Below are positions 24,438 through 62,039 of a stretch of 64,000 bases of DNA, piece after piece. The notes under the pieces were generated by a model. The model made no database searches. It was not told where the DNA came from and worked only from the letters and a program-made list of their open reading frames with translations. Source of the stretch: Patescibacteria group bacterium. Lineage in GTDB: Bacteria; Patescibacteriota; Minisyncoccia; Phycocordibacterales; SBAW01. The position numbers and the translations under genes were made by a program. The DNA is taken from the NCBI GenBank assembly GCA_028871115.1, contig JAGWOD010000001.1:4736-68735 (forward strand), in the 5' to 3' direction. Position 1 is the first letter of the stretch; each line of letters opens with the position of its first letter.

Positions 24438-25352
24438 ATGGCAAACAGGCACCTCTCACGCTCAGTCGTACTCCAGGCCCTTTTCGAGTGGGATTTTAAG
24501 TCTCTCACTAAAGAACAGGCGCAGGCGTGTCTTTCTCGTATTACCTCTGAATTTGCCTCCGGTGCCGCAGATACGGCGTTTATGGAAGAGCTCCTTGGAG
24601 GTGTTCTTTCTCGTCGGGGTGATCTCGATCTCGTTATTGAAAAGGCTGCTCCTGAGTGGCCACTTGAGCGCATTTCTCCTGTTGATCGGAATATTCTTAG
24701 GCTCGGCCTCTACGAGCTTCTTTTTTCTGATCGAAACAAAGTACCTGCCAAAGTTGCCATCAATGAAGCGATAGAGCTCGGTAAAGCCTATGGAGGTGAA
24801 AATAGTGGCCGCTTCGTTAACGGTGTTCTTGGCGCGGTGTACAAGGAGCTCGGAGAGCCAGGTAAAGATGAGGTTGGCAAAAGGCGCAAAGACATTCCGT
24901 ACGACCAGATGCCGGTGGAGTATCTCGGCGGAGCGGTAGTCTTTGCGCACCACCAAGGTGATGTCTATCTCGCGCTGGTGCACGATATCTTTGGCCACTG
25001 GACGCTTTCCAAAGGACGCATTGAACAAGGAGAGAATCTCGAGGAGGGGACGATACGGGAGATTAAAGAGGAAATAGGACTTTCTATAAAGATACTTTCC
25101 TCACTCGGAGAAAATGAGTACGTAGCAAGTGATCCAAAAGCTGGGAAAAAACGCAAACACGTCGCGTATTTCCTCGCGGAATCGCCTTTTGTCGATGTAA
25201 AGCTCGAAGAAGAAAAGGGGGGCCTCGACGAAGCCCGCTGGTTTCGTCTCAAAGATGCCCTTGAACTTAATTTCTACGAGGACATCCTGCCTATTGTCAC
25301 GAAAGCAGTACAGAATCTTACCGAAGGTTCAAAGAAGAAACATAAGAAATAA
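24438..25352 (+). CDS. nusB: NusB (transcription antitermination factor) fused to a C-terminal Nudix hydrolase domain
   Basis: Residues 1 to ~140 are NusB (RSVVLQALFEWDF...AINEAIELGKAYGGENSGRFVNGVLGAVYKE). Residues ~165-304 carry a Nudix box (GHWTLSKGRIEQGENLEEGTIREIKEEIGL). Confidence 0.8.
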   Translation: MANRHLSRSVVLQALFEWDFKSLTKEQAQACLSRITSEFASGAADTAFMEELLGGVLSRRGDLDLVIEKAAPEWPLERISPVDRNILRLGLYELLFSDRNKVPAKVAINEAIELGKAYGGENSGRFVNGVLGAVYKELGEPGKDEVGKRRKDIPYDQMPVEYLGGAVVFAHHQGDVYLALVHDIFGHWTLSKGRIEQGENLEEGTIREIKEEIGLSIKILSSLGENEYVASDPKAGKKRKHVAYFLAESPFVDVKLEEEKGGLDEARWFRLKDALELNFYEDILPIVTKAVQNLTEGSKKKHKK

Positions 25353-35500: not shown

Positions 35501-38500
35501 GGAGAAATGGAAGTATGGGCACTTCTTGGCTATGGCGCTGCCTATACGCTGCGCGAGATGCTCACGGTGAAATCCGACGACATCATGGGTCGTTCAGCGG
35601 CATTCGACTCTCTTGTGCGCGGGGAACGTATTGCACACCACTACGCTCCAGCATCATTCAACGTGCTCTTGCATACCTTGCGTGGTCTCGCGCTTGATGT
35701 TGAGCTCCTCCGGGGGACTGCACCTATCCGTAGCGGCAAGAAAACTCCTGGAGCAGAGATCGGAGATTTTGACGCAGTGCGTATAAGACCTGCCTCTCCT
35801 GAGAGAATTGGCGAATGGTCCTATGGAGAAGTTACAAAGCCTGAAACTATCAACTACCGCACCCAGCGTCCGGAGAAGAACTCCCTCTTTGATGAGAAGA
35901 TATTCGGGCCTGAGAAAGACTACGAATGCTATTGCGGAAAATATCGAGGCATACGCTACAAGGGCATTGTCTGCGAGAAATGCGGTGTTGAGCTCACTCG
36001 GGCTATTGTGCGTCGCGAGCGTATGGGGCACGTCGATCTCGCAGTCCCTGTCGCGCATGTGTGGTTCTTGCGTGGCATTCCGTCGCGACTCGCCATGACT
36101 CTGGGTATCTCTGCCGCCGATCTTGAAAAGGTCGCCTATTTTGCGGGGTATATCATCATCTCGGTCAATGAAAAGGAACGTGAGCGTATCAGCAAAGAGC
36201 TTGAGAGCGAATACAAGACCAAGCTCAAGGCGCTTCAGGACGAGAAATCGAAGGAGAAGATCAAAGAGCTTTTTCTTGAAGCCAAGCGCGATATCGATGC
36301 ACTGCGGATCGGTACAGTTCTCGACGAGGCTCGATATCACCGCTACGCCATAAAATATGGTGCTGCGTTCGAAGCGGGAATTGGTGCAGAGGCACTTTAC
36401 AATTTCTGCAAAGGCCTCGATCTCAAAATGATGGAGCGTGCTACCGCTAAGGCCTTCGAGGAGGCTGGTTCTGCCGAACGCGAGAAATTGAGCAAACGAC
36501 TCTCACTCATGCGCGGCATGATACGAGCCAACGTGCGTCCCGAATGGATGTTCCTCACCCGCATTCCTATTATTCCGCCGGGCTTGCGCCCCATGGTGGC
36601 ACTTGATGGTGGCCGCCACGCGACCTCGGATGTTAATGATCTTTATCGTCGTGTCATCAATCGCAACAATCGTCTCAAGAAGCTCATAGATATTCATGCG
36701 CCTGATGTAATTCTGCGCAATGAAAAACGAATCCTCCAGGAGGCAGTAGATGCTCTTATTGATAATTCAATCCGCCATGGTGGAGCGGCGTATTCCGCGA
36801 CCACACAGGCTCGCACCCGTCCGCTGAAGTCTCTCTCAGATAACCTCAAAGGCAAGCACGGCCTCTTCCGACAAAACCTTCTCGGCAAGCGAGTCGATTA
36901 CTCTGGCCGATCGGTCATTGTGGTAGGCCCTGAACTCAAACTCAACCAGTGCGGTCTTCCCAAACACATGGCGCTTGAACTCTTCCGTCCCTTTATCATC
37001 GGCAAACTTCTTGAGAGAGAACTTGCCTACAATATTCGTGGTGCTGGACGTCTTATTGATGAAGGGGTACCTGAGGTGTGGGCTATTCTTGAAGATGTCA
37101 TAAAGGATAAGTACGTGCTTCTCAACCGCGCGCCTACCCTCCACCGCTTGGGTATTCAGGCCTTCCAGCCGGTTCTTATTGAAGGCAACGCGATACAGCT
37201 TCACCCGCTTGTATGTCCTGCTTTTAACGCTGACTTCGATGGTGACCAGATGGCAGTACACGTGCCACTTTCGCCTGAAGCACAAGCCGAAGCACGTGAA
37301 ATTATGGCGGCTCCTAAGAACATCCTCAAGCCCGGAGATGGCCAGCCGGTAGTTGCCTCCAAACTTCTCGATATTTTGCTCGGTGCTTATTGGATGACCA
37401 AGGAAGTGGAAAAAGCTAAAGGGGAGGGAATGGCCTTCTCAAGCCCTAATGCTGCCATATTGGCCTACGATTACGGTGCTGTTGGCTTCCAAGCAAAGAT
37501 CAAAGTCCTTCCTTCGGAGAAAGAGAAGTACGCACAGTTTGGGAATTCTCTTTTTGAGACGACCGTAGGACGCCTGCTCTTCAATACGGTATTCCCCTCG
37601 GATTATCCCTATGTAAACGCGGCCATTGATAAGAAAGGCCTTGCTCGGCTCGTTGATGATCTTATCGCCCGGTACGGTCTCGAGAGAATACCTGAGATCA
37701 TGGATCGCATTAAGGCGTTCGGATTTCGCTACGTTACACAGTCGGGTATTACCTGGTCCCTCGACGATATTCGTGTGCCGAAGGAGAAGCGGGAAATTGT
37801 CGCTGCCGCACAGAAGCGATCCGATGAAATCGTCAAACATTGGGAAGAAGGCCTTCTCTCCCAGGAAGAGCGCTACCGCATGAATATTGAGGTCTGGCAC
37901 GCGGCAAAGGCTGAAGTCGAGAAGCTCATACCTGCGACACTTCCAATTAACGGCTCAGTCTCCGACATGTTGCGCTCCGGTGCTCGCGGTTCTATTGCCC
38001 AGGTAACGCAAATGGCGGGCATGAAGGGTCTTATTGCTTCTCCAACTGGCGAGGCTATCGAATTTCCGATCACCACCTCCATGAAAGAGGGTCTTTCGCC
38101 GATTGAATACTTCATTACCACCCACGGCTCTCGAAAAGGACTCACTGATACTGCTCTTCAAACTGCAAAAGCTGGGTATCTCACTCGACGTTTGTTTGAC
38201 GTGGCGCAAGACATTGTCGTAGGGGAGGAAGACTGCGGAACTAGTGAAGGTCTCGCTGTGCGCCGCGAGAGCGCATCAGGAATCGGTACCTTCCTCGCAA
38301 GCAATATTCGAGGACGTTTCCTTGCTGGAGATGTCGCGGACGCGAAGGGCACTATTCTCTTCAAGAAAGGTCATTTTACGACAGCGCCAGATGCAAAAAA
38401 GATTGAGGAATCGGGAGCCCCCTCCGTATATGTTCGCTCCCCAGTCGGATGTAAATCACAACGAGGCATTTGTATTCACTGCTATGGAGCAGATCTTGCA

Positions 38501-39412
38501 ACCTGGGAGCCGGTCTCCCTTGGAGAAGCGGTAGGCACAGTTGCCGCCCAAGCTATCGGTGAACCCGGCACTCAACTCACTATGAACGTCAAGCATGCTG
38601 GCGGTTCAGCGTCGGTCGGAGGCGACATCACCCAGGGTCTCCCTCGTGTTGAGGAGATATTTGAACGCCGCACCCCCCGCAACCCTGCTGCTGTGGCTGC
38701 TGTAGCGGGCGAAGTGATAGAAATACGCGAGGACGGAAAAGAGAAAACCATCGTGGTTCTTCCTGATATTGAGAGCAAAGGAAAAGGCAAGAAGGCCGGT
38801 TCGGTTGAATACCCGGTCAACATACGCCGCACCCCACTTATAAAAATGGGAGATCGAGTCGAACGGGGCCAGCTTCTCACTGACGGATCAGCGGATCTTT
38901 CCGAACTTTTCCAATATGCAGGACGAGAAAAGACACTCGACTATATCTTGCGGGAAGTCTCCCGAATATACGAGCTTCAGGGCGTTACGATATCAGTCAA
39001 ACATATTGAAGTCATTGCTCGTCAGATGTTTAGCCGTATGCGTATAACCGAACCGGGAAATACGGAATTCTCTTCCGGTGATATTGCGGGCGAAGTTGAG
39101 CTCACGGCCGAAAACGCTGAAACGTCCGGTGAAAAAGCCAAAGCAGAGCCTCTCATCATGGGTATTCTCGAAGTCTCGCTTTCTCGTGCGAGCTTCCTCT
39201 CAGCCGCTTCGTTCCAGAACACGACCCGTATGCTCATCAAGGCGTCAGTTTACGGAGCGATAGACTATCTCCATGGCCTCAAAGAGAACGTCATCATCGG
39301 TCGACTTATCCCAGCTGGCACCGGGTACCGGGGTTCGTCGAAATCGGCAATAGTAGCAAAGTACGCACCTATCCCGACTGAAGCTATCCGCAAAGAGCGT
39401 GAAATCGCTTAG
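32570..39412 (+). CDS. rpoBC: Fused DNA-directed RNA polymerase beta-beta' subunit (RpoB-RpoC single polypeptide, 2280 aa)
   Basis: N-terminal ~1045 aa are RpoB (through [13 protein letters not shown]). A short linker (~35711-35765) follows. The RpoC N-terminus then runs in frame ([22 protein letters not shown]...[22 protein letters not shown]...NADFDGD). No stop or frameshift is present. Confidence 0.9.
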
Positions 39413-42984: not shown

Positions 42985-44208
42985 TTAGCGCTGCTCAGTA
43001 AGGTCCCAAATTTTTGCTGCAATATTGCGCGGCCTACCCTCAAACGGCAGGTGATGGTTGTCGAAAAAAGGCATACTGTTGCATTCGATTACTCCACAGC
43101 GCACCTCTCTCCATGAACGGGAGAGATCGGGGCTGATGAAGTCAATTCCAACTACTTCAGCCCGCAGTCTGTCTGAAATCTCCTCGAAGAGGAGAATATT
43201 ATCAGGATGGACTTCATCACTCACATCTTTTGTCGTGCCCCCTACCGACCAATTAATTTTTTGGTGCAGGGTAATCCGCTCTCCAGAGGGAGGAACACTT
43301 TGAGGTGAAAGTGTTTGTCTTTTTAATTCATCGAGCGTCTCTTGAGAAAGTGCGATAGGGGAGAAGTATGGCCCCCGTCGAGCAGGGTGCTCATTTGCTT
43401 TCTCTACGAGCTCTTGTATCGTTTTGTGACCGTCTCCGATAATAGTCGGAGGATCACGACGAATAGTTGCACAAAGCTTCCCGTCGACTAGGGTGGCGCG
43501 ATACACGTGTCCCTCAAGCTCTTCCTCGATGACTACTAAAGGCGAGACCTGCTTTGCGATAGCAAAGGCTTGTTTGAGCTTCTTCTCGTCCGATATATGG
43601 AGGGTCGTGTGTCGCGTGGCCGAACCCACATGAGGTTTTGTGATGACGGGTTTTAGAAGAGTATCGTATATGTGCCGAGCGCTCTTGTAAGAAGAGGCCG
43701 CACCTCCTGCAGCTACTGGAAAGTGGTATGCCTGGAATCTTTTTTTGAGTTCGGCCTTATTATCGATCCACCAGACTGGCCCACGTTTCCGAGTGGATAA
43801 GGGGATTCCTTCAAACGAGCTATGCCGCCCATCTCTAAACTTCACTATGAAAAGATTGCGTGGAAGTCCAAATAATCTGAACTCTTGCATCTCGATTCCG
43901 CGCTCTTTTGCCTCTTCCCATAGTACGCGGTCAAGAAGAAGCGTCTTCTCGTCGGGTGCATCAAGCAAGGTCCCGAGCCCTAGTCGCGCTATTCCTCTGT
44001 AAATGAGCGGCAGGAGCCATTCTGCGTGCAATACACGCTCTCCTATATATCGTCCAATCTCGCTCGGATAGAAGAAAAGAGGACGTGCAAAGCGCTCAAG
44101 CCAGAGGGCAATATAGGTCCCTTTGTGGTATATCGGATCGCTTCCACAATCGGTGCAACGCAGTGCGGAGCCCGATACTTCTTGCATGCTCATAGTATAC
44201 TCGCTCAT
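42985..44208 (-). CDS. ATP-grasp enzyme related to the cyanophycin-synthetase N-terminal domain (standalone)
   Basis: ATP-grasp motifs include ...IIGDGHKTIQELVEKANEHPARRG... and NWSVGGTTKDVSDEVHPDN, which is CphA-N-like. The N-terminus carries a CTDCG motif. Confidence 0.6.
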   Translation of the reverse strand: MSEYTMSMQEVSGSALRCTDCGSDPIYHKGTYIALWLERFARPLFFYPSEIGRYIGERVLHAEWLLPLIYRGIARLGLGTLLDAPDEKTLLLDRVLWEEAKERGIEMQEFRLFGLPRNLFIVKFRDGRHSSFEGIPLSTRKRGPVWWIDNKAELKKRFQAYHFPVAAGGAASSYKSARHIYDTLLKPVITKPHVGSATRHTTLHISDEKKLKQAFAIAKQVSPLVVIEEELEGHVYRATLVDGKLCATIRRDPPTIIGDGHKTIQELVEKANEHPARRGPYFSPIALSQETLDELKRQTLSPQSVPPSGERITLHQKINWSVGGTTKDVSDEVHPDNILLFEEISDRLRAEVVGIDFISPDLSRSWREVRCGVIECNSMPFFDNHHLPFEGRPRNIAAKIWDLTEQR

Positions 44209-44235
44209 AAAGGAGCCTGGTATTATACTGCCCTC

Positions 44236-45099
44236 ATGAAATCTCAGGGGTCAAAAGATTTGAATGTGGGCGAGAAAAAACACACTAAGACCCGCTTTCC
44301 CATACAGCATTGGAGCCATTCCTCCCTCACGGCCTTTTTGAGAAATCCGCTCGCTTGGTATAAACGCTATGTCGAGGAAATCTATGATACTCCCGCAACC
44401 CCCTCGTCCATAGTCGGTCGGGCTGGCCATGTTGCCCTGCAACATTTCTATGGTGGGCTCGGGAAGGAACCTGCTATAGCTCTTGGCCTTGAATACCTAC
44501 GAAGTGTTTCCGACTTTGAAATCAATTTTGGAGCCATAAAAAGCAAGCGTCTCAAGAAAAAGAAGCGAGAAGCTATGGAGCGGGAGTACCTTCAAGCAGT
44601 GGGATTTTATCTAGAGCGGCCTCCCAAACACAGAGTACTTGGTGTTGAAGTGAAGGCGATGGCAAAGGTGCCGGGTCTCCCGCTTCCTCTTAAGGCGGTA
44701 TCGGATCTTGTGGTTACCTCCCGAGTGGAAAAGGGGGCGGTCGACATTATTGACCATAAATTCGTCGATCATTTTAGCAGGCGGGGAGTAGAGAAGCCGC
44801 TTTTTCTCATTCAAGCTCTCTTTAACTACTACACGGTCCAAGAACTTTTTGGAAAGCCGGTTCGACGCTTTGTCGTATATGAATGTAAAAAATCAAGAAA
44901 TGCCGATGGTTCAGCCCAATTACGTCGGCACGTTATTGATTTTCGCTCCTGTAAGGAAGATTTTACTGTCTTCCACCGCCTCATACGGGACGCAACGGAG
45001 GAGATTGGGCGACGCCGAGCGTATCTTCCCAATCCTTCTGACCTTTTTGAAGGAGATAATTCCTTCGATATCTATCGTCTCGGTCTTCTTGAAGAGTAG
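44236..45099 (+). CDS. PD-(D/E)XK family nuclease (RecB/Cas4-like fold)
   Basis: HWSHSSLTAFLRNPLAWYKRY N-terminal motif, plus D/E-K residues typical of the PDDEXK_1 family. The start is at the ATG at 44236, and the ORF-track start at 44026 overlaps the divergent gene. Confidence 0.55.
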   Translation: MKSQGSKDLNVGEKKHTKTRFPIQHWSHSSLTAFLRNPLAWYKRYVEEIYDTPATPSSIVGRAGHVALQHFYGGLGKEPAIALGLEYLRSVSDFEINFGAIKSKRLKKKKREAMEREYLQAVGFYLERPPKHRVLGVEVKAMAKVPGLPLPLKAVSDLVVTSRVEKGAVDIIDHKFVDHFSRRGVEKPLFLIQALFNYYTVQELFGKPVRRFVVYECKKSRNADGSAQLRRHVIDFRSCKEDFTVFHRLIRDATEEIGRRRAYLPNPSDLFEGDNSFDIYRLGLLEE

Positions 45100-52606: not shown

Positions 52607-52988
52607 GGTCGCCGTGAAAAGTTAGTTATTAATAAGTGCTTGCTCTCGGACTTGTTATTATACTCCTCCCACTTCCACTCGGCTCGTTTTTTTCATCATC
52701 AGGACTGTGTACAAATAACAACAGCACATTTTTTAGCCCCTCCGCAACGGGACTCGTAAAAAATGCTGCGCCCCAGGCATTTTTTGATGTATTTTTTCAT
52801 AAGTCTCAATCATTCATGATCATCAAAACATCACAATAGTCTCTAAAATGTAGGGATCATCCCACCGCCACTAATTTCCTCTACAGCTTGATTACCTCGT
52901 ATATAAAACATCCCTTTCCAATTGGTCTCTGGTATTTTTTTTATATGCGAGTATGCTGAATTCGTACTGCACTCAAGCGCACTAGGTT

Positions 52989-53528
52989 ATGCTTATCCAC
53001 CGAAGAGAGAAAGAAGATCAGAACATCTGGAATTTCTTTTTTAGCGTTCTTTTTGGGATACTTCTTGCCCTTTCGTGTTGGCAAATATACCTAACGTACG
53101 GCTTTTTCCCGCAAGGGGTGCCTGTATTTGACGCTGTACTAATGGCTCTTGCCGTGTTGCGTATCACGCGGCTTCTCGTCTATGACAAAATAACGCGCTT
53201 CGCGCGCGAGTGGTTCCTTCAAAAACGTACTGTAGTCGAGAATGGGAAGGAATTCATTGAGCTCAAAGAATTTCAGAAAGGATTCCGACATACTATCCAC
53301 GATCTTCTTCAGTGCCCGTGGTGTGTGGCCGTCTGGGCGTCACTTGTCGTTGTGTTTTGTTATTTCGAATTTACCTGGAGTTGGTATGTCATCTTCATGC
53401 TCGCTGTCGCCGGGGTAGGGTCGTTCCTTCAAGTGAGTGCGAATGCGATTGGTTGGTACGCTGAAGCGAAAAAAACTGCAACGCTCGAGATGAGACGCTC
53501 CAAGACTATTGAAACCGGACGGGAATAG
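52989..53528 (+). CDS. DUF1360-family integral membrane protein
   Basis: ITRLLVYDKI...LQCPWCVAVWASL pattern with 4 TM helices. Confidence 0.6.
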   Translation: MLIHRREKEDQNIWNFFFSVLFGILLALSCWQIYLTYGFFPQGVPVFDAVLMALAVLRITRLLVYDKITRFAREWFLQKRTVVENGKEFIELKEFQKGFRHTIHDLLQCPWCVAVWASLVVVFCYFEFTWSWYVIFMLAVAGVGSFLQVSANAIGWYAEAKKTATLEMRRSKTIETGRE

Positions 53529-53985
53529 AGGCCGATTGATTCCGCGAGGGATCACCGGAAGAATTTTTATTTTCTAAAATGAGCGTGCCGGTCGCTGTTT
53601 GTGGCTGTGTGAAGTTGAGTGTTGCACTAAATGAGATAAACTTGCTGCTTGTTGAGTTCTCCTCAGCATTTGCGGACGTTTGCACAATGATATTGCCGTT
53701 TGCATCCTCGAGTATCACAGGAAACTGACCTTCTACATACCAAGAGCTCGTAGCTTCTCCATTGACTATGAGAGGGGAGCTGACCAGGTCTCCGGCATTG
53801 GGAGAAGAGATAGAAATACTCGCTTCAGCGTTTGCTCCGGAAAAAGTAGTAGTCGCAGGAAACTCTGAAGTAGTGCTAGCCATTACTCCTCCTTGGGGTA
53901 GGGGTGCGCCAGGACGCAAGACAAAGTAGGATACTCCTCCTGCGAGGATGACAAGAATGAGGATGATAAACCAGTCTTTATTCAT
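53506..53985 (-). CDS. Membrane-anchored Gmad2/GerMN-like Ig-fold protein
   Basis: N-terminal TM, then a Ser/Thr-rich linker, then a domain resembling the Gmad2 family. It is the last gene of the GH130 operon, with a 4-nt overlap. Confidence 0.5.
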   Translation of the reverse strand: MNKDWFIILILVILAGGVSYFVLRPGAPLPQGGVMASTTSEFPATTTFSGANAEASISISSPNAGDLVSSPLIVNGEATSSWYVEGQFPVILEDANGNIIVQTSANAEENSTSSKFISFSATLNFTQPQTATGTLILENKNSSGDPSRNQSASIPVRFQ

Positions 53986-54797
53986 AGCGCTTCCTTTAGG
54001 TGAGGACGCTTTTGAGTGGTAACGCTTTCATGCGTAGATAGTGCCTCTAAAATGCTCTTGATCTTTAAGGCCGTTTCAGCAACCGAAGAGACTTGGAATG
54101 TTGGTATTTCTGTTTCTTTTACCACTTCATCGTTGCCGCCAGGGTAGAGCGCATCACCAACGTAGAGCATCTCACGTATTGGGATAGCAGTAATTTGAGC
54201 GAGTTTTTGGATACCATACGCTTTGGTAATGCCTTTGCGGACAATATCGATGGTCGTCATGCCTCCGATACGGATTGTAAAATCGGGAAGAAGCGGTTGG
54301 AGTGCTTCTTGGAGAGAAGTTCGTTTGCGACGCTCAGGATCCCATTTTTCTTTTTCAGAAATGGGTGCCTGTTGTCCGAGCGCAGAGAAAGATATTTCAG
54401 AACCACGATCTTCGATTTGTTCTCCCCATGTGGTAGTGATATCTCTCTCGACCTCGGTTGAAGCGAGTGCATGAGTGAGAGCATTTCGAATCGCTTCTTT
54501 TTCTTCCGGGGAGAGTTCAAGATCATAGGAGGCATGCCAGGCGCCCTCCACGTACTGGTAGAGCTCAGATGCATTTGTTGGGAAGAGATACAACCGCTCG
54601 AGACGAGCATCGGAGGGTATGCTCGCAAGAAATTGTTTTTGAAACTGCGGATATGATCCTCCCGACATCACAGCGATGGGTAGTTTCTCAAGAAGTTTCC
54701 CGAGAAGATCACCCATGTCCTTCCCGAGTAGCTGCTTACTTTCTGCAAGCGTTCCATCCAGATCAAACGCTACAAGTTTCGGCAGTGTGCTCTTCAT
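53982..54797 (-). CDS. HAD-IIB family hydrolase, eukaryotic-type phosphomannomutase-like
   Basis: VAFDLDGTLAES (HAD motif I), IAVMSGGSYPQFQKQF (PMM-like) and YVGDAL...GGND (motif IV). Confidence 0.65.
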   Translation of the reverse strand: MKSTLPKLVAFDLDGTLAESKQLLGKDMGDLLGKLLEKLPIAVMSGGSYPQFQKQFLASIPSDARLERLYLFPTNASELYQYVEGAWHASYDLELSPEEKEAIRNALTHALASTEVERDITTTWGEQIEDRGSEISFSALGQQAPISEKEKWDPERRKRTSLQEALQPLLPDFTIRIGGMTTIDIVRKGITKAYGIQKLAQITAIPIREMLYVGDALYPGGNDEVVKETEIPTFQVSSVAETALKIKSILEALSTHESVTTQKRPHLKEAL

Positions 54798-56722
54798 GTG
54801 AGCGTTTTTGGCGCGAGGATACTAAGCAGTCGCTTGAGTGAAAATGTTGCTACTCCTACTACGGAATCGGCTGCTCCGTAGTATACGAAGAGTGAATCTT
54901 TCTTGAGCGTCATGCCGCAGGAGAACACGACCTTGCGCACCTGACCCTCGAGCTCATAGGATTCAGTCGGTTCGAAAATGGTATCGGCGGTGCGGGCAAG
55001 AACGATCGTGGGGTTCTTTAGATCAAGGAGTGCTGCGCCCAGCCGGTAGGTACCGGTGCGAGATACGCCGTGATAGATGAGAAGCCATCCTGCTTTTGTC
55101 TTAAGTGGCGGTCCAGCGATCCCCACCTTCTCGCTGTCCCACATTCCTTTGCGTGGGGAGATGAGTTCAATGCAGCGGGAGAGGCGTTCTTTGCTGAAAT
55201 CAAGCGAATCAAGAAGATCTGCGCACACGCTGCCTGCCGTATCAACTCGATGCATCAGCATAAATTTATTCCCAATTTTCTCCGGGAACACGCACATATC
55301 CTTGTCATGGACCATATCTGGCGTCACGAGCTGGGGGGGACTCCATTTGGAAAAGCGCTGTGCTACGAAATCCTTCACCGCTATGGAGGAAAGAGCCGCA
55401 TGCCAGGGGTGTACCCCGTCGTAGGCAGTGTAGCCAAGATAAATTCGCTCACCGATTCGGGTGAGTCGGGGATCCTCACATCCTGAGTTAACTCCCGCCG
55501 CCCGTTTCATTTCAAAATCTGCCCGCGGAGCATAGGCAGGCTCCGGAAGGCGTTTAGAGATGTGCACGCCGTCCTTGCTCGAGGCATATCCGAAAGTCGA
55601 CGTATTATCATTGGACATTGCGCGATAGAGAATGTGCACGGTTCCTCCTATCTGTACCGCTGCGGGATTAAACGTCGCCTTCTTTTCCCATGAGTGGTTA
55701 GCATCGGGGCGTATGATGGGATTTTCTTTCGCGCGTATTGCGAATTTTGCTCTTCGCATAGGTATGAGGGCAGTGAGGAGGTCATTCAGTGAAAGGGAGA
55801 ATTTTGCGCAGACGGTATCAGCGGATCCGTAATAGACGTCGAGCCGGTCCTCTTCCTCAAGTAGTGCTCCGGTCGGGAAGACAATATCGGGGGTCACTCC
55901 GTAGCGCTCATAGATTTCTTCTGGAACAAGGATGGGACCCTTCGTCCGTCCAATGATAGTGCGCGGATCATCGAGATCGAGAAGCACCGCTTCGATACCG
56001 AAGACTCGCTCGCCGCCGCCGAAGTAATTTTGGATATACGAATAGATGAGAAGCCACCCATCCTTCGTGCGTATTGGCGGCGCGCCTACTTCTACGTGGT
56101 CATGGTCAGAACGCAGGGGATTGAGAGTATGCATGGAGAGATCGGCATGCCATGCTTCCCAGAATTTCTGATCCCACAGTTCTTCAAGTCGGTCGCACTG
56201 CACTATGGCGATGCGTGCTGGCGGCTCGTCGGTGTGCGCGGTGAGCACTGCTGTTATTTTGCCCCCCACGCGCTTCGGGAATAGCGCCATTGCTTTGGCA
56301 TTAAAGGGAGTTACAAGGTGCTTTTCGTCGATGTGCTCGAGATCCCTTGAGAGCGCCACTCCTATCTTGATGTTGCCCGCTCCAAATGGCACACCGCCGA
56401 GCGCAGTGTAGAAAATAATGTAGGTTCCCTCAAAATATGCGACACGAGGATCCTCACAGCCAAACCGGTCCCACTCTTCCGAGGGGGTGATCAGTTGTCG
56501 GCGTCTGCTAAATGATTCTCCATCTTGGGACTCTGCCACTCCGATCGTTGAGATGCCTGCGGGTGTCATGAGCGCATCGGGATTACCGAGCGCTCGGTAG
56601 AGAAGATACGTCGATCCTCCTTTCTTGATTGGGCAGCCATTGAAAGTCCCGCGGGCTTCCCAGGGGCGGGCATCGCTCGGCATGAGAAGCGGATTGCGGG
56701 GACTGCGGCGGGCGATAAACAT
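54794..56722 (-). CDS. Tandem double GH130-family glycoside phosphorylase (two beta-mannoside-phosphorylase-like modules fused)
   Basis: The GH130/DUF377 pattern occurs twice: FNGCPI..YLLYRALG...GVAESQDGESF...CEDPRV, and FNPAAVQIGGTVHILYRAM...GYASSKDGVHI...CEDPRL. Confidence 0.7.
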   Translation of the reverse strand: MFIARRSPRNPLLMPSDARPWEARGTFNGCPIKKGGSTYLLYRALGNPDALMTPAGISTIGVAESQDGESFSRRRQLITPSEEWDRFGCEDPRVAYFEGTYIIFYTALGGVPFGAGNIKIGVALSRDLEHIDEKHLVTPFNAKAMALFPKRVGGKITAVLTAHTDEPPARIAIVQCDRLEELWDQKFWEAWHADLSMHTLNPLRSDHDHVEVGAPPIRTKDGWLLIYSYIQNYFGGGERVFGIEAVLLDLDDPRTIIGRTKGPILVPEEIYERYGVTPDIVFPTGALLEEEDRLDVYYGSADTVCAKFSLSLNDLLTALIPMRRAKFAIRAKENPIIRPDANHSWEKKATFNPAAVQIGGTVHILYRAMSNDNTSTFGYASSKDGVHISKRLPEPAYAPRADFEMKRAAGVNSGCEDPRLTRIGERIYLGYTAYDGVHPWHAALSSIAVKDFVAQRFSKWSPPQLVTPDMVHDKDMCVFPEKIGNKFMLMHRVDTAGSVCADLLDSLDFSKERLSRCIELISPRKGMWDSEKVGIAGPPLKTKAGWLLIYHGVSRTGTYRLGAALLDLKNPTIVLARTADTIFEPTESYELEGQVRKVVFSCGMTLKKDSLFVYYGAADSVVGVATFSLKRLLSILAPKTLT

Positions 56723-56734
56723 ACGTTTGATTGA

Positions 56735-57931
56735 TTATACTGCAGGCGCGAGGACGGCATGTTCATCGTGCATAAGCGATCGCAGAAAATTCTCAAGAGG
56801 AGCGGTCGCAACATTAACGGTCTTGTCGCCTCCGCCGTAGTAGAGGAAGAGCGTCCCGTCTTTGATCACCGCGCCTGAGCCGTACACGACCCCGGGCTTC
56901 CAGTCGTTTTCATAGGGCATATCAGGAGTGAGTATAGGCTTCGAAGAGCGAAAAAGTATTTTAGTGGGCTCCTCAAGATCAAGAAGCATCGCGCCTATGT
57001 TGTATCCAATGTGCACATGGGCGGGATCCATCCCGTGATAAAAAAGAAGCCAACCACGCGAGGTTTTAAGTGGCGGGGCACCCGTGCCACGCACCCACTT
57101 ATCCCAGTGATGGGGTCGCCCTTTGGTGCGATCATAATGGCTTTCTATATATTCTCCGCGCTCAAAGCGGGAGAGATCGTCAACATATTCAACTTCGACC
57201 TCGGGGGCCACACTATGGAGAATTGCATATTTTCCATGGATCTTCTCAGGAAATAGTACCCAGTTTTTATGAATAGAGCCTGGCGGAGAGAGGGGAACGG
57301 GCTTGTTCCAGCGCCACGTCTTTGCAAGGAGCGCATCTGCATGCAGCGAGGTGAGCATCATCCGAAGACTTTCCCAGCCGTTGAAGGCCGAATAGGTCAT
57401 ATACACAACCCCTTCAATCTCGACAGCGCGCGGATCCTCGCTTCCTCCCCAGCCACCGCCTGAAGCGTAGAGCGCAGGGTTGTAGCGCAGTTCCGAACGC
57501 GCAGGGGAGGTGAATGGATTTCGAAACTTCGATAGCAAATGCTCTATGTCGGCAATAAAAACGGGGTGAGGAAGACGTTCATCAAAGTGAACTCCATCAG
57601 CGCTTGAAGCATACCCGACGCGGGAAATTCCATCCTCACCAAGCGCGCGATAAAGCAAGTGGACTCGATCGCCAACATACACCGCTGCGGGGTTGAATAC
57701 CGCCTGATTCTCCCAGGCATGTTCAGGGAGGGGTCCGAGGACGGGATTTTCTCGAGCACGAGCCAGATGGGGCGTCCGTCCCCGAAATGAGTGTCTCGCG
57801 ACATAGCCGATTGCGAAGAGAATGAGAAAAAGTATGAATCCGGCAATAACAATCCACACATTGCCTAGCGCAATGCCAGAAAGAATCACCGCCGCTGCGA
57901 CTATTTCCTCCATACCAATCTTATTGCGCAC
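56735..57931 (-). CDS. Membrane-anchored GH130-family glycoside phosphorylase
   Basis: N-terminal TM helix (IVAAAVILSGIALGNVWIVIAGFILFLILFAIG), then a GH130 pattern (FNPAAVYVGDRVHLLYRALG...GYASSADGVHF...SEDPRAV). Confidence 0.7.
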   Translation of the reverse strand: MRNKIGMEEIVAAAVILSGIALGNVWIVIAGFILFLILFAIGYVARHSFRGRTPHLARARENPVLGPLPEHAWENQAVFNPAAVYVGDRVHLLYRALGEDGISRVGYASSADGVHFDERLPHPVFIADIEHLLSKFRNPFTSPARSELRYNPALYASGGGWGGSEDPRAVEIEGVVYMTYSAFNGWESLRMMLTSLHADALLAKTWRWNKPVPLSPPGSIHKNWVLFPEKIHGKYAILHSVAPEVEVEYVDDLSRFERGEYIESHYDRTKGRPHHWDKWVRGTGAPPLKTSRGWLLFYHGMDPAHVHIGYNIGAMLLDLEEPTKILFRSSKPILTPDMPYENDWKPGVVYGSGAVIKDGTLFLYYGGGDKTVNVATAPLENFLRSLMHDEHAVLAPAV

Positions 57932-58290
57932 TACGTCCGTCCGTACCGGTCTTTCAGTCGAACTATGTCTTCTTCATCAAAATCTCCAAAGGAGATCTCA
58001 AGCATCCACAGATCATGCTCGAGTGCTTCTGCCCGGTGTGCGGTTCCTCGTGGAATAAAAAATTCCTTTTGGGCATGGACTTTTTGAGTGCTGTCCCCAA
58101 TAGTCACCACACCTTCTCCGCTCAGTACATGCCAGAACTCGTCTCGCTTGGCGTGTGTCTGAAGGCTCAGGGCTTCACCGCTGCGTACTGAAAGAAGTTT
58201 TACGGTTGAGGGAGTATTTAAGGTGAATTGTTCGAAAAACCCCCAAGGCCGCTCCTCTTTTTTATAAAAAGGGAGACTTTCAGTACTCAT
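57931..58290 (-). CDS. Cupin-type mannose-6-phosphate isomerase (type II PMI domain, standalone)
   Basis: ERPWGFFEQF...SLQTHAKRDEFWHVLSGEG...IPRGTAHRAEAL...DIVRLKDRYGR matches the PMI cupin of ManC-type enzymes. The start is placed at internal Met 17, and the ORF-track start is 58338. Confidence 0.65.
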   Translation of the reverse strand: MSTESLPFYKKEERPWGFFEQFTLNTPSTVKLLSVRSGEALSLQTHAKRDEFWHVLSGEGVVTIGDSTQKVHAQKEFFIPRGTAHRAEALEHDLWMLEISFGDFDEEDIVRLKDRYGRT

Positions 58291-58408
58291 TAATTTCAGT
58301 ATATGCCTAGAATTTTCGCAGAACCCTAAAAAAGCCAAGAACTGTGCACAACTTATGTGCTCAAGTTGAAGTTCTCCTCAACTCAAAGAGGAAAAGTGGC
58401 AACTAATC

Positions 58409-59104
58409 TTAGGATCCCGAGGGGATTTTGTTGTTGAAGAATAGAGCGCGTTCTTTTGGGAACAGCCACAGGGCCATGGCGTACACGCTGTAGGAGATGA
58501 AAAAGGCTGAAAGCACATCTATCGTGTAGTGGAGATGACCAAGAAGGACCACCACTCCGAGAATCACTGAAGCAGCCAGGAAGATATAGCGCAGGAGTCT
58601 ATCATGCCAATAGATAAGGGCCATCATGAAGGGGAGGGTAGTGTGTCCTGAGAAGAATTGATCGCCTCCTCCGAAGAACGCGAGCAGTATCTTGCTATGC
58701 ACATCTATTATGACGTGATCAGGGTAGGGCCCAATGTGTGTGAGCGACACAAAAATGGCGCGGACGAAGAATACCAAGCTTAGTGTATAGAGTGTGAAGG
58801 GTGCTCGTTTGGGATGAAGGATACATAGAATAGCGATAAGTAAGACTACTGCAAGCGCCCCGTATACAAAAATATCCTCCACTCCCGTAACGACGGGCAC
58901 ATTGGAGAGAATGATGTCGGTCACTGAGCTGCTTGCTTTCTCGGTCGCATACAGATCGCTGAAGGCGTTGGCGGCAGCGCTCAAGGCAATTGCCACTAGT
59001 GAAAGAAGAATAGAAAAAAATATCTCCCTGTTGGACCAGATTTCTTTGTGACGCTGCCATGCGCGGCTCGACCATCCTTCAGGTACTATAGTCTCCTCCT
59101 GCAT
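58409..59104 (-). CDS. PAP2-superfamily integral membrane phosphatase/transferase
   Basis: FSGHTT and GHLHYTIDV motifs (PAP2 motifs 2 and 3), multiple TM helices. Confidence 0.55.
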   Translation of the reverse strand: MQEETIVPEGWSSRAWQRHKEIWSNREIFFSILLSLVAIALSAAANAFSDLYATEKASSSVTDIILSNVPVVTGVEDIFVYGALAVVLLIAILCILHPKRAPFTLYTLSLVFFVRAIFVSLTHIGPYPDHVIIDVHSKILLAFFGGGDQFFSGHTTLPFMMALIYWHDRLLRYIFLAASVILGVVVLLGHLHYTIDVLSAFFISYSVYAMALWLFPKERALFFNNKIPSGS

Positions 59105-59129
59105 CTTTGTGAGTATACTACCTCCTCTC

Positions 59130-60353
59130 TCACCCTCGCTTCATTGCCCGCATGAGGATGCTCGCTCCTAGGAATACGAGCAAGAGTCCGAGAGCGTAGA
59201 GATAGAGTCCTCCTGAGAGGATGTTTTTCTCCTGCGTGAAAAAGAAGGTTAGAGAAATAAGAAGGGTGCCTGCTAGCATACGCCAGACCCACAACGACGC
59301 GTCCCGAAAAATCATCGTCGCATAAAAATCCTTTCCGCTTCTTCCCATAGATTCCATGGTATAGAGATCAGTTACGTGAATTGATACGCGCACTACCGGC
59401 CAAGACACTGCTCCCGCAAATCCGTAGAGTATGACTCCGGGAGCACTCAGTAGCGAAGCGAATAGTGCACTCGAGACGGCAAGAAAGGATGTTGATATCC
59501 CAAGAATTTTCAAACGATTCTCCACGGTCCGATATTGTGCGAGCGCAAGAATAAATAGTGCGGAGAACACAGCGAAGGATGTTGCATACAAGCCCACCTG
59601 AATTACTCCTCCGAGAAGAAAGAGGACCACAAGGGGAATGGTGACGGTCGAGACTACCTCCTGCCAGGCAGTTGCGAGGAGGTAAGGCTGTGCAGAGCGA
59701 TTTTTTCGCTCGGTGAGGAAATGTGAGAAATCATGCCATTCAATGGGCGTAGGCCGGTAATTGTTGAGACCTGAGAAACAGAAAAAACCGAACAAGTAGA
59801 AGAGGGGAGTAATAATGAAAAGGAGCGTGAATTGTCCGATATTGAATACCTGCCCGGAAAGCCATAGAAGGAGTGTTGCAAGCGCTGGCCCTAAAATTGC
59901 GACAATGACGGTGCCGGCAGTAAGCAAGGAAGAGTAAAAATCTCGCTCCTCGTTGCGCGTCTCTGATAGTTCGAAAGTGTGAATAGTGAGCCAGAAGAGG
60001 CCGTTACCAAGGCCGTTGACTCCCATGGCGAGATAGGCAAGCGCGGGGGTGTCGCTTTTGAGGAGTACCAAGAGCGTAACCCCCATCAATATGAAGCTCC
60101 AGAAAAATCCGTATTTTATATTGAGCTGCCATCGGGAAGCAAAAAATCCGAGTATACAGAAGGTTACTGCGATTCCCGTGTCGAAGATAAGCGTCGCGAG
60201 AACGTTAAGAGCGAAACTTGAGAACTCCTGATACAAAAAAAGCTGAATAAACACGCTCGTGAGACTTGTCGTGAGGCTGTAAATCCAGAAGAGAAACACG
60301 AGGGAACGTACCGGCAGGCGCAAGCCCCTGAATTGCCTGAATATCTGAGACAT
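59130..60353 (-). CDS. MFS transporter (12 TM)
   Basis: Hydropathy pattern and MFS-like loop motifs. Its start codon overlaps the divergent GT2 start (CATG). Confidence 0.7.
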   Translation of the reverse strand: MSQIFRQFRGLRLPVRSLVFLFWIYSLTTSLTSVFIQLFLYQEFSSFALNVLATLIFDTGIAVTFCILGFFASRWQLNIKYGFFWSFILMGVTLLVLLKSDTPALAYLAMGVNGLGNGLFWLTIHTFELSETRNEERDFYSSLLTAGTVIVAILGPALATLLLWLSGQVFNIGQFTLLFIITPLFYLFGFFCFSGLNNYRPTPIEWHDFSHFLTERKNRSAQPYLLATAWQEVVSTVTIPLVVLFLLGGVIQVGLYATSFAVFSALFILALAQYRTVENRLKILGISTSFLAVSSALFASLLSAPGVILYGFAGAVSWPVVRVSIHVTDLYTMESMGRSGKDFYATMIFRDASLWVWRMLAGTLLISLTFFFTQEKNILSGGLYLYALGLLLVFLGASILMRAMKRG

Positions 60354-61173
60354 GTCATCATTTTACACCGTGAAAGTAAGTATTGTAGTGCCTGCATATA
60401 ACGAAGAGGAGGTACTCGGACCTTGCCTCCAAACCATACGCCATTCGATTGCCGAGGCTTCCCTTGAAGAGAATGACTACGAGATCATCGTCGTAAACAA
60501 CGTTTCGACGGACCGAACCAGGGAGATTGCGAGCGCCACCCCAGGAGTTCGAGTAGTTGATGAGCCTCGCAAGGGACTTACCCGAGCTAAAGAAGCGGGA
60601 TTTAGGGCTGCCCGGGGTGAGCTCATAGCGCATCCCGACGCGGACACTCTCATGCCACCGCATTGGCTATCGTTTGCGCTCTCGGAATTTGAGCGCAGTC
60701 CTCATCTTGTGGCCCTCAGCGGTCCGTACATTTACTACGATGCTACAGGCCTTTCGCGCCTCGTTACTCGCATCTGGCTCACCATGGGGTTTCTTTTTCA
60801 TCTTGTTATACGGGACATTCTTCACAAAGGAGCGATGGTGCAGGGAGGGAACTATATTGCGCGTCGCTCGGCTCTCGAGGCAATTCAAGGATACGATACG
60901 TCTATAGAATTTTATGGCGAGGATTTCGATATCGCGACCCGTCTCCTTAGAGTAGGGAAAGTCAAATGGACCTGGAAGTTCTATATGTATTCCTCAAGCC
61001 GGCGCCTAGCGGCTGAAGGAAGTATTATCACTGGGCTGCGCTATGGAGCGAATAATATTGCTTCAGTTTTTCTCAGGCGTCCTTTGATGCAAACTTATAC
61101 TGATATCCGACCAAAATTGAAGGCTCGTGCCCAGGAGGCGGCAGACACGTTGATAAGAACAGGACGTTTATAG
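60352..61173 (+). CDS. Family 2 glycosyltransferase (soluble/monotopic type)
   Basis: VSIVVPAYNEE...VVNNVSTD...HPDADT... Confidence 0.8.
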   Translation: MSSFYTVKVSIVVPAYNEEEVLGPCLQTIRHSIAEASLEENDYEIIVVNNVSTDRTREIASATPGVRVVDEPRKGLTRAKEAGFRAARGELIAHPDADTLMPPHWLSFALSEFERSPHLVALSGPYIYYDATGLSRLVTRIWLTMGFLFHLVIRDILHKGAMVQGGNYIARRSALEAIQGYDTSIEFYGEDFDIATRLLRVGKVKWTWKFYMYSSSRRLAAEGSIITGLRYGANNIASVFLRRPLMQTYTDIRPKLKARAQEAADTLIRTGRL

Positions 61174-61208
61174 CGCCGAGCTCTCAAGCGCGTGGGATCT
61201 GAGGGATA

Positions 61209-61236
61209 TTGACAAATATCTATATTTATGTATAAT
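61209..61236 (+). promoter_or_regulatory. Consensus sigma70 promoter (TTGACA-N16-TATAAT, with TG immediately upstream of the -10)
   Basis: ttgaca at 61209-61214 and tataat at 61231-61236. AAGGAG SD at 61294-61299 and ATG at 61305. Confidence 0.6.
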
Positions 61237-61304
61237 TACCCCCAGAAAAAGCCTTAGAATGAGGAAAAGAACGGGGGACTCCACCCTTAACCCAAGGAGT
61301 CCTC

Positions 61305-62039
61305 ATGCGTTTGTTCAAACATAAGGAAGACGCTTCCAAGCAAAAGCCTCGTCGAATCTTCAAGCTCTCCCGCATCGTGTTGTTGCTCCTCGGCGCCACG
61401 CTCATCATTCAGCATTACTACCTGTCGGCTGAAATGGGTCAGGCGCTCGAGAGCCAGTCACTTAAGGAGGCTATACGAGAGTGTGTGGGGCCAGTGCTTG
61501 CCGGTGAGGCGGGCATTGTTGGTCCCAAGGGCATGGCGCTTGTCGGCAAGACTATCGAGAACCGTGCGGCGCTGCTCAAAGGCGACCTGTTTGCTCGCCT
61601 CTGTCAGGCAGCAAAGGGCGTCCATATGGCGCGTGGCAAGGGGCCTATGCCCGACTACTCAAGCTGGCTCGGACATTCGATCCAGTATGAGCGAGGCGGA
61701 CAGCGTCTCTTGGCCCAGGCCGAGGACGTTGCTGGGAAGGTGTTTAGTGGCGAGTGGGATTTCGGGAACATCAATACTGAGCATCTCACTCATTACAACA
61801 CCTTTACCCCTGCTTCACCACAATGGTGGAGCTTCATGCGGGGCAATCGGGGCATCGATTGCAAGAGTGTCCAAATGCTGCACACGAAGAGTGGAGGTAT
61901 AAGTTTCTTCACCCTTTGTTACAGCGGTTCCACTCCGCACGCCTCTCTGAGATTCTCGCAGACTACCTCCAAGGTGGGGCAGCAGCGAGTGCCACCTCCG
62001 CCACCTCGGAAGCCTCTCTACCATATTGCCAATCGGTAA
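61305..62039 (+). CDS. Hypothetical membrane-anchored protein (GC-rich compositional outlier)
   Basis: Strong promoter, SD and terminator. There is an N-terminal TM (IVLLLLGATLIIQHYYL). Codon style is GC3-rich, unlike the neighbouring genes. Confidence 0.5.
   Translation: MRLFKHKEDASKQKPRRIFKLSRIVLLLLGATLIIQHYYLSAEMGQALESQSLKEAIRECVGPVLAGEAGIVGPKGMALVGKTIENRAALLKGDLFARLCQAAKGVHMARGKGPMPDYSSWLGHSIQYERGGQRLLAQAEDVAGKVFSGEWDFGNINTEHLTHYNTFTPASPQWWSFMRGNRGIDCKSVQMLHTKSGGISFFTLCYSGSTPHASLRFSQTTSKVGQQRVPPPPPRKPLYHIANR

Follow-up and report, generated by a model that had tools for sequence, protein, structure and literature searches.

Why would a member of the Patescibacteria keep three modules of glycoside hydrolase family 130 (GH130) side by side in a single gene cluster? 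The question is raised by a 64,000-nucleotide stretch of the genome of a Patescibacteria group bacterium (contig JAGWOD010000001.1 of assembly GCA_028871115.1, positions 4,736 to 68,735; hereafter the window), in which five consecutive, co-directional minus-strand genes occupy positions 53506-58338. A listing of open reading frames (ORFs), followed by Pfam and NCBIfam profile searches, was the basis of the gene and domain calls. In order, the genes encode a cupin of phosphomannose isomerase (PMI) type, a single-domain GH130 protein with an N-terminal membrane anchor, a 642-aa fusion of two further GH130 domains (the N-module and the C-module), a HAD-IIB protein of phosphomannomutase (PMM) type and a membrane-anchored Gmad2 protein. 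An initial annotation had described the same tightly spaced or overlapping genes and the same five domains; the ORF listing agreed with the former and the profile searches upheld the latter. It had also proposed that the cluster builds beta-mannosides, perhaps a surface or lipid-linked mannan. Our analysis points elsewhere: we lean, at little better than even confidence, towards a cytoplasmic, membrane-associated module for beta-1,2-mannoside turnover, from which mannose 1-phosphate (Man-1-P) would pass through mannose 6-phosphate (Man-6-P) to fructose 6-phosphate (Fru-6-P).

Both GH130 proteins matched PF04041 (Glyco_hydro_130) in two stretches each, at 118 bits for the 398-aa single GH130 and 294 bits for the fusion (cut-off 26). 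The best NCBIfam model for both was NF052550 (beta-1,2-mannobiose phosphorylase), to whose equivalog family they are related, but they lie below its cut-off of 450 bits (405 bits for the fusion, summed over its two modules, and 205 bits for the anchored GH130). The nearest solved relatives of all three modules were Teth514_1788 and Teth514_1789 (E 4e-39 to 4e-52); the single GH130 matched Teth514_1788 best (E 1.5e-50), while the C-module matched Teth514_1788 at E 3.5e-52 and Teth514_1789 at 1e-51. An AlphaFold2 model of the fusion (mean pLDDT 91.9, pTM 0.89) confirmed the GH130 fold: the top Foldseek matches were the same two proteins (target TM-score 0.88-0.90, root-mean-square deviation ~2 Å), and all top matches belonged to GH130. 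The modules are members of GH130, with GH130_6 as the nearest subfamily.

Published residue criteria for this family are a proton-donor Asp, an Arg168/His231 pair that binds phosphate, and, at the +1 subsite, Arg, Glu or Tyr, Lys or Arg, and Asp (PMC7660257). GH130 hydrolases carry, in place of the basic residues, the carboxylates Glu227 and Glu268, which act as base, and also Tyr302 (PMC4599007), and a further scheme, which uses the Uhgb_MS numbering Lys184, Arg202 and Arg242, sorts enzymes by the number of phosphate contacts and by the L2 loop (PMC12814180). Residues were mapped by HMMER pairwise alignments and a joint MAFFT alignment of modules from 77 genomes, and checked more widely in diverse representatives at 50% identity (20 N-modules, 30 C-modules and 100 single GH130 proteins). 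The proton-donor Asp (Asp104 in Uhgb_MP), within the motif (G/S)(C/S)EDPR, was present in 77/77 N-modules, 77/77 C-modules and 72/72 ungapped single GH130 proteins. The +1 residues were likewise kept in every N-module and C-module (77/77 each), and also in the single GH130. Among them is the combination of a Glu beside the catalytic Asp with a Lys at +1, which marks the beta-1,2-specific GH130_3, GH130_4 and GH130_6 enzymes (Glu141/Lys199 in BT3780, Glu136/Lys184 in Uhgb_MS); it was found in all 77 N-modules, all 77 C-modules and 72-73 of the ungapped single GH130 proteins, and in 20/20, 30/30 and 99/100 of the diverse representatives, respectively. All three modules carry a short L2 loop of the Teth514 type.

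At the phosphate site, by contrast, the three modules differ. The C-module has the +1 Arg, Glu-Asp, Lys (DKD), Arg168 (MHR), His231 (IYHG) and Asp304, each in 77/77 genomes, with Arg168 and His231 each in 27/30 of the diverse representatives. In the N-module, AHTDEPP stands opposite LHRRYP of Teth514_1788, and IYSY opposite IYHA. The position of Arg168 is Thr164 in the window and Thr or Ser in 76/77 genomes; that of His231 is Ser228 in the window and Ser in 77/77; a third basic position is His209 in the window and His in 73/77. Adjoining the replaced positions are invariant acidic and Tyr residues (motifs HTD, DH-E and YSY), of which Asp165, Glu211 and Tyr227 recur in 19/20, 18/20 and 17/20 diverse representatives, 1-2 residues from the replaced positions. 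The N-module therefore looks hydrolase-like, with Asp165, Glu211 and Tyr227 as candidate counterparts of Glu227, Glu268 and Tyr302 by residue spacing and sequence register. The GH130_3 hydrolases BT3780 and BACOVA_03624 resemble it in that they retain the proton-donor Asp together with Glu and Lys at +1 and lack the basic phosphate-binding residues (PMC4599007); by sequence register, the Glu227, Glu268 and Tyr302 of BT3780 would fall in stretches corresponding to those that hold the N-module carboxylates and Tyr. However, these hydrolases are secreted, single-domain proteins of polysaccharide-utilisation loci (PMC4599007, PMC7660257), whereas the N-module is predicted to be cytoplasmic and is fused to a phosphorylase-type module. 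Filing it with the secreted GH130_3 hydrolases was rejected, as it has no leader and its sequence is nearer GH130_6.

The anchored GH130 shows an intermediate pattern. It keeps the catalytic Asp (GSEDPR), the +1 Arg, Glu, Lys and Asp, and the His (FYHG), and has LHSV where phosphorylases have LHRR, so that Ser replaces the phosphate-site Arg. Among ungapped neighbours of the fusion this position is Ser, Asn or Ala in 63/73 and Arg in 7, with the His kept in 68/76. The N-module lacks both residues of the pair and the anchored GH130 lacks the Arg; therefore only one of the three modules, the C-module, has the predicted phosphorylase site. The initial annotation had called all three modules phosphorylases, a description that stands for the C-module and fails for the other two by the phosphate-site condition that the annotation itself had set. 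A transglycosylase role for the phosphate-less modules was rejected on mechanistic grounds, because an inverting enzyme that acts by single displacement has no means of restoring a beta-linkage when its donor is also beta.

These losses raise the possibility that the C-module is the sole catalyst, and that the N-module and the anchored GH130 are pseudo-enzyme partners, which would bind beta-1,2-mannoside chains, or give a hetero-oligomer its shape and tether it. GH130 enzymes exist as obligate oligomers whose active sites lie close to the interfaces (PMC12814180), the two fused modules are packed against each other in a fixed and confidently predicted way in the AlphaFold2 model, both partners have lost phosphate-binding residues, and the fusions in several orders described below suggest a physical complex. 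Yet the proton-donor Asp and all examined -1 and +1 sugar residues are invariant in all three modules from bacteria of the Candidate Phyla Radiation (CPR) to archaea, which exceeds what chain binding would need, and the N-module has an invariant acidic/Tyr motif of its own at the former phosphate site. We consider a purely non-catalytic role for the two modules improbable.

The distribution of these genes bears on whether they form a system. The fusion of the window is identical to NCBI KGJ34_00270 and has 5710 relatives among database proteins at E <= 1e-10, of which the best 120 are all ~640 aa long and 64-72% identical; when clustered at 50% identity, the relatives at E <= 1e-30 fall into 509 groups. 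Scanning a single genome for each species gave 80 loci, which belong to Paceibacteria-type and other CPR bacteria and to archaea labelled Brockarchaeota, Nitrososphaerota, Caldarchaeales and Thermoproteota; these taxon names are the labels of metagenome-assembled genome records and may be imprecise. For linkage, all ORFs of each locus were searched with the window proteins, and the loci with enough flanking sequence were kept (42 bacterial and 8 archaeal). A single GH130 adjoined the fusion in 42/42 bacterial and 8/8 archaeal loci, PMI in 37/42 and 0/8, and the HAD protein in 33/42 and 0/8; the linkage of PMI, HAD and GH130 genes is thus conserved in the bacterial loci. The commonest order was PMI, single GH130, fusion, HAD (27 loci, from independent genomes); in a second clade it was HAD, PMI, single GH130, fusion (4 loci).

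The modules have also been joined in other ways. One 971-aa protein (P0121) is a triple fusion of single GH130, N-module and C-module, in the same order as the genes, with a first module 47% identical to the anchored GH130 of the window. Further proteins join the single GH130 to the C-module (P0128, 697 aa) or carry the two fused modules in reversed C-N order (P0127, 645 aa), and a fusion of single GH130 and N-module also occurs. The recurrent gene order and the fusions of different module types therefore indicate that the gene set is more than a chance assembly. The conserved unit is the set of three GH130 modules, to which PMI and the mutase are a Patescibacteria-wide addition; judging by adjacency in all qualifying loci and by the fusions in several orders, the three modules act as a unit. 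No further conserved partner was found among 736 clustered unassigned neighbour ORFs beyond lineage-local synteny (DedA, GT4, response regulator, UppP, HisRS, RNR).

Several loci depart from the usual layout. One protein (P0123, 1029 aa) carries a C-terminal extension of ~400 aa after an N-C fusion; locus L011 (8019-8785) has two tandem PMI cupins, L033 (12840-13994) a further GH130 gene after HAD, and L074 (1297-2262) an extra 322-aa ORF between the single GH130 and the fusion, best matched by the fused-GH130 query. A 396-aa ‘PMI’ ORF of L001 was considered as a full bifunctional GDP-mannose pyrophosphorylase/PMI (GMP/PMI) and rejected, as it is only a normal cupin preceded by a long stretch without stop codons. 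Archaeal neighbour ORFs were unrelated, except for a cofactor-independent phosphoglycerate-mutase-type (ApgM-type) metalloenzyme (PF10143/PF01676) ~1.7 kb upstream of the fused GH130 in four loci: in L064 it lies at 8507-9865 (+), the same cluster is present in three other archaeal loci, and all four are without the HAD mutase. This enzyme might be an analogous sugar-phosphate mutase, or might reflect mere synteny.

The two genes that accompany the GH130 modules in Patescibacteria can be assigned to families with some precision. The cupin scored 66.2 bits against PF01050 (MannoseP_isomer; cut-off 23.6) and, of the bifunctional GMP/PMI model TIGR01479, matched nothing but the C-terminal positions 351-467; it is therefore a stand-alone cupin. 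Its motifs RPWG, SLQxH, RxExW, HR and YGR are conserved in 51 homologues, with SLQxH, RxE and HR at >=90%. With the PF01050 match and the His, Glu and His positions in place, it reads as a type II PMI cupin domain with predicted isomerase activity; no close solved relative of it was found.

The HAD protein scored 44.5 bits against PF03332 (PMM; cut-off 22.4) and matched NCBIfam TIGR01484 (HAD-SF-IIB). Its best solved relative is the alpha-phosphoglucomutase (alpha-PGM) of Lactococcus lactis, PgmH (4BND; E 1.3e-38, residues 5-250), followed by 16 PMM sequences at E 3e-13 to 8e-5, with human PMM2 at ~1e-12; all 17 PDB matches are PMM or alpha-PGM sequences. Conversely, the TIGR00099 model of Cof-type HAD-IIB phosphatases reached 32 bits against a cut-off of 137, and other phosphatase models of the HAD superfamily scored far below their cut-offs. 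The protein is therefore mutase-type and not a generic Cof phosphatase, a candidate that was ruled out, and the PMM-like call of the initial annotation stands. The motifs FDLDGTL, SG, EDR, GQxAP, KG..K and GDxxxxGGND are conserved in 49 homologues, EDR and GQxAP belonging to the cap domain. The lactococcal enzyme and eukaryotic PMM1 and PMM2 share this fold family and these motifs, and PgmH has in common with the operon protein the GQ(Q/K)A cap motif of the alpha-PGM type. PgmH was deposited and named as a glucose-phosphate mutase; enzymes of this family often accept both mannose and glucose phosphates, as does PfHAD5 (PMC8808168). We assign it to the PMM/alpha-PGM-type mutases, with a putative Man-1-P/Man-6-P activity favoured by the operon context.

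Where in the cell the GH130 proteins would work is suggested by the charge around the anchor. The N-terminal membrane anchor reported for the single GH130 was confirmed (Kyte-Doolittle mean 2.84 over 19 residues) and is followed in the window protein by the basic stretch RHSFRGRTPHLARAR. A hydrophobic N-terminal segment was present in 45/77 single-GH130 homologues; in these 45, the 15 positions next to the domain held on average 4.2 Lys or Arg and the short N-terminal flank 0.16, with the domain side the more positive in 43/45. By the positive-inside rule, the basic side of a membrane segment is cytoplasmic. The anchored catalytic domain is therefore predicted to be cytoplasmic, at the inner face of the membrane. 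The fusion has no hydrophobic leader or signal peptide-like N-terminus and opens straight into the propeller (MFIARRSPRNPLL). A second CPR clade (L042-L051, L054, L058, L060, L063, L076-L078) carries, in place of the anchor, a tail of ~45-60 residues, 40-50% Lys/Arg, which could be a peripheral membrane-binding or a nucleic-acid-binding extension, and the archaeal single-GH130 homologues have neither anchor nor tail.

These observations bear directly on the surface-mannan proposal, in which the anchored GH130 would act with the neighbouring PAP2, MFS and GT2 genes to assemble or remodel a surface or lipid-linked mannan independently of nucleotide sugars. One GH130 is indeed anchored, and the PAP2_C, MFS and GT2 genes flank the operon as the initial annotation stated; PAP2 lies within 5 kb of the core in 10/42 bacterial loci, and GT4 and UppP genes lie near some close relatives. 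However, the charge distribution places the catalytic domain inside the cell, a Lys-rich soluble tail replaces the anchor in other CPR, and the archaeal partners have neither. GT2 and Gmad2 (the latter following HAD) each accompany 7/42 bacterial loci, and MFS 2/42, so that they are not conserved, and all four genes, PAP2 included, are absent from the archaeal loci (0/8). Neither a flippase nor a glycosyltransferase acting on lipid carriers accompanies the core. Moreover, the phosphate site of the anchored module is defective, and it is therefore the module least likely to run reverse phosphorolysis. We regard surface assembly as very improbable; PAP2_C, MFS, GT2 and Gmad2 are local context and not conserved partners of the core.

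In the cytoplasmic turnover that we favour, the C-module would act as an inverting phosphorylase, converting a beta-1,2-mannoside and phosphate (Pi) into alpha-Man-1-P and a shortened chain. The N-module would bind the same kind of sugar with its phosphate pocket exchanged for Asp, Glu and Tyr, and would most likely hydrolyse a linkage that the phosphorylase cannot use, such as that of the final disaccharide or the one joining an aglycone. At the inner membrane face, the anchored GH130, with its weakened phosphate site, may be a low-affinity phosphorylase or a transferase-like enzyme. In Patescibacteria the HAD mutase would then interconvert Man-1-P and Man-6-P, and the cupin isomerase Man-6-P and Fru-6-P; such a phosphorolytic route into glycolysis would save the ATP of a kinase step. 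The sequence from GH130 phosphorolysis of beta-mannosides to alpha-Man-1-P, and then through PMM and PMI to Fru-6-P, is a published ATP-sparing catabolic scheme (PMC4264767). The gene set in itself gives no argument for the synthetic direction proposed in the initial annotation. Nothing in the sequence fixes the direction of flux; the same enzymes run in reverse would give that synthesis route.

Comparison with known GH130 systems places the locus near, but not within, described arrangements. Teth514_1788 and Teth514_1789 of Thermoanaerobacter sp. X-514 (GH130_6) carry the same Glu/Lys beta-1,2 signature as the operon modules and a similarly short L2 loop, and are neighbouring, cytoplasmic paralogues with divided roles that yield Man-1-P (PMC4264767), as proposed here. 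Both members of that pair, however, are canonical phosphorylases on separate genes, whereas the present locus has three modules, of which two are fused, one is anchored and only one has a canonical phosphate site. Their cluster includes an ABC (ATP-binding cassette) importer, GH5, a Man-1-P guanylyltransferase and GT4 (PMC4264767), in contrast to PMI and a HAD mutase without importer or guanylyltransferase. The GH130 mannan and N-glycan pathways of Bacteroides and Ruminococcus follow the same route from beta-mannoside through Man-1-P and Man-6-P to Fru-6-P (PMC4264767). Unlike the operon modules with their beta-1,2 signature, these enzymes are beta-1,4-specific, with a Tyr/Arg signature (PMC7660257), and are encoded with glycanases, an epimerase and transporters, their PMM and PMI being housekeeping proteins of other families and not operon partners.

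Several points weigh against the turnover reading. Neighbour clustering and locus linkage counts showed no transporter or extracellular mannanase that regularly accompanies the core, and beta-1,2-mannans seldom occur in nature (PMC4264767), so that no external substrate is apparent. The archaeal loci have neither PMI nor HAD beside the GH130 genes. The fusion is ~50% identical between tiny CPR genomes and several archaeal lineages, and the presence of the set in both therefore hints at an endogenous, more central substrate. The nearest characterised relative of the HAD protein is a phosphoglucomutase and not a phosphomannomutase. Finally, the hydrolase assignment of the N-module depends on alignment register, and the known GH130 hydrolases are secreted and of another subfamily (PMC4599007).

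The lack of a conserved importer, together with the occurrence of the set in minimal genomes and archaea, weighs against simple scavenging and keeps alive a different explanation, an endogenous reserve cycle: an intracellular beta-1,2-mannan would be made as well as broken down by the three modules. Synthesis would proceed by reverse phosphorolysis with Man-1-P made by PMI and the mutase, or with the Arg-less anchored GH130 as a GDP-mannose transferase, and degradation by the C-module and N-module. The precedent is the mannogen system of Leishmania (GT108, MTP1-7), similar in outline, in which paralogous five-bladed propellers act on intracellular beta-1,2-mannan. The MTPs differ at the phosphate-site Arg and are split between transferase-only enzymes and phosphorylases: strict, Arg-less transferases prime synthesis, and Arg-bearing GH130-fold paralogues are phosphorylases in vivo (PMC10913872, PMC12814180). 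The paralogous modules of the operon differ at exactly this Arg. In addition, all tested beta-1,2 GH130 phosphorylases use GDP-mannose weakly, and in vitro the closest relative, Teth514_1788, can run phosphorolysis in reverse to give long beta-1,2 chains (PMC12814180). A decision tree from the same study, which is a post hoc rationalisation and not a validated predictor, counts enzymes that combine a short L2 loop with just three phosphate contacts and some contacts to the nucleotide base among transferases whose phosphorylase activity is absent or very weak (PMC12814180); the short Teth514-type loop is present in all three modules here.

Against a reserve cycle, no beta-1,2-mannan has been reported from CPR bacteria or these archaea. 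The modules are GH130_6-like and not GT108. No MTP (GT108) entry was among the phmmer matches of the GH130 proteins in the PDB, and likeness to GT108 is one of fold comparison, with Foldseek E 5e-10 to 1e-8, 15-17% identity and target TM-scores of 0.64-0.71 (E 5e-10 and 16% identity to MTP4); membership of GT108 was rejected on these grounds. The authors of PMC12814180 regard the transferase side-activity of GH130 enzymes as possibly without physiological relevance, and net synthesis from Man-1-P would need a high Man-1-P/Pi ratio, to judge from phosphorylase equilibria. The operon contains no GDP-mannose pyrophosphorylase gene, as the initial annotation stated, and no nucleotidyl-transferase gene or NTP-transferase domain was found in the operon or in the ~50 window ORFs scanned with Pfam. 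On this evidence a reserve cycle is a tentative alternative, distinctly less probable than cytoplasmic turnover leading to Fru-6-P. Its most complete form seems to us unlikely: a prokaryotic counterpart of mannogen, in which a hetero-trimodular GH130 machine, sometimes made as one 971-aa chain, with transferase-like, hydrolase-like and phosphorylase sites would build and mobilise intracellular beta-1,2-mannan at the inner membrane face, coupled by PMI and HAD to Fru-6-P, in Patescibacteria and several archaea.

The coordinates of the cluster and its neighbours are collected in the table.

Table. Features of the GH130 gene cluster and its immediate neighbours in the window.
Feature	Position	Strand	Length	Basis or remark
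Cupin, type II phosphomannose-isomerase-like, stand-alone	57931-58338	-	135 aa from TTG start	PF01050
Single-domain GH130 with N-terminal membrane anchor	56735-57931	-	398 aa from GTG start	PF04041
Hydrophobic membrane-anchor segment of single GH130	57797-57904	-	~residues 10-45	Kyte-Doolittle
Double-GH130 fusion	54794-56722	-	642 aa	PF04041 twice
N-terminal GH130 module of fusion (N-module)	55748-56722	-	aa 1-325	HMMER alignment
C-terminal GH130 module of fusion (C-module)	54794-55747	-	aa 326-642 + stop	canonical beta-1,2-mannoside-phosphorylase-type active site
HAD-IIB phosphohexomutase, eukaryotic-PMM / lactococcal alpha-PGM type	53982-54797	-	271 aa	PF03332, TIGR01484
Gmad2 Ig-like protein, small, membrane-anchored	53506-53985	-	159 aa	PF10648
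PAP2_C membrane protein, upstream, same strand	58409-59104	-		PF14360, 37 bits
MFS transporter, upstream, same strand	59130-60353	-		PF07690, 40 bits
GT2, divergent	60352-61173	+		flanks operon

For the cupin the real start is likely the ATG at 58290, and for the single GH130 probably the ATG at 57913, which is conserved in homologues; their junction is a 1-nt overlap as listed and an 18-nt gap if the ATG is used. A 12-nt spacer separates the single GH130 from the fusion, and the fusion/HAD and HAD/Gmad2 junctions are 4-nt overlaps. The Gmad2 gene (44.9 bits to PF10648) is probably co-transcribed with the operon here, yet is no conserved member of the system. A promoter and terminator scan of 52800-61400 gave counts that do not exceed shuffled expectation and therefore says nothing about operon boundaries. 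A gene for a DUF1360 membrane protein, at 52989-53528 (+), runs towards the Gmad2 gene and shares 23 nt with it at their 3' ends, and the arrangement of HAD, Gmad2 and, on the opposite strand, DUF1360 recurs in about ten close relatives.

By Pfam scans of its ORFs, the rest of the window is housekeeping DNA, and includes a gene for class II fructose-bisphosphate aldolase. Elsewhere in it, rpoB and rpoC are fused in one 2280-aa ORF (32570-39412, +; Rpb2 domains at aa 19-1047 and Rpb1 domains at aa 1067-2165), and a 304-aa protein (24438-25352, +) joins a NusB domain (aa 7-136) to a NUDIX hydrolase domain (aa 182-282). Four ORFs of 244-407 aa had no Pfam match at E <= 0.001 (0.01 for the last): 12979-14028 (-), 16393-17601 (+), 42985-44208 (-) and 61305-62039 (+). 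The third of these overlaps a PD-(D/E)XK nuclease ORF (44026-45099) on the other strand.

Our search of the literature on GH130 in CPR, Parcubacteria or these archaea found no description of the clade, the fusion or the operon, in keeping with the initial view that the combination was new; the sole related text was a passing reference to a Microgenomates genome with two GH130 genes described as intracellular (PMC7143001). The pathway itself is already known, and it is the module architecture and the two non-canonical active sites that are unstudied. GH130 function is now predicted from a handful of active-site residues, and this large clade, in CPR bacteria and archaea alike, retains a set of three modules that differ in their nucleophile pockets; two of these modules would be mis-annotated as phosphorylases. 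The modules thus provide natural variants for asking what decides between phosphorylase, hydrolase and transferase chemistry in the GH130 fold. Should the locus encode no more than a scavenging route that spares ATP, it would extend a known pathway in an ordinary way; if it is a prokaryotic counterpart of mannogen, the two non-canonical modules would define new GH130 activities. Ultra-small bacteria have very few sugar pathways, and a conserved, operon-encoded route between beta-mannosides and glycolysis is among the few concrete leads on what these bacteria eat or store.

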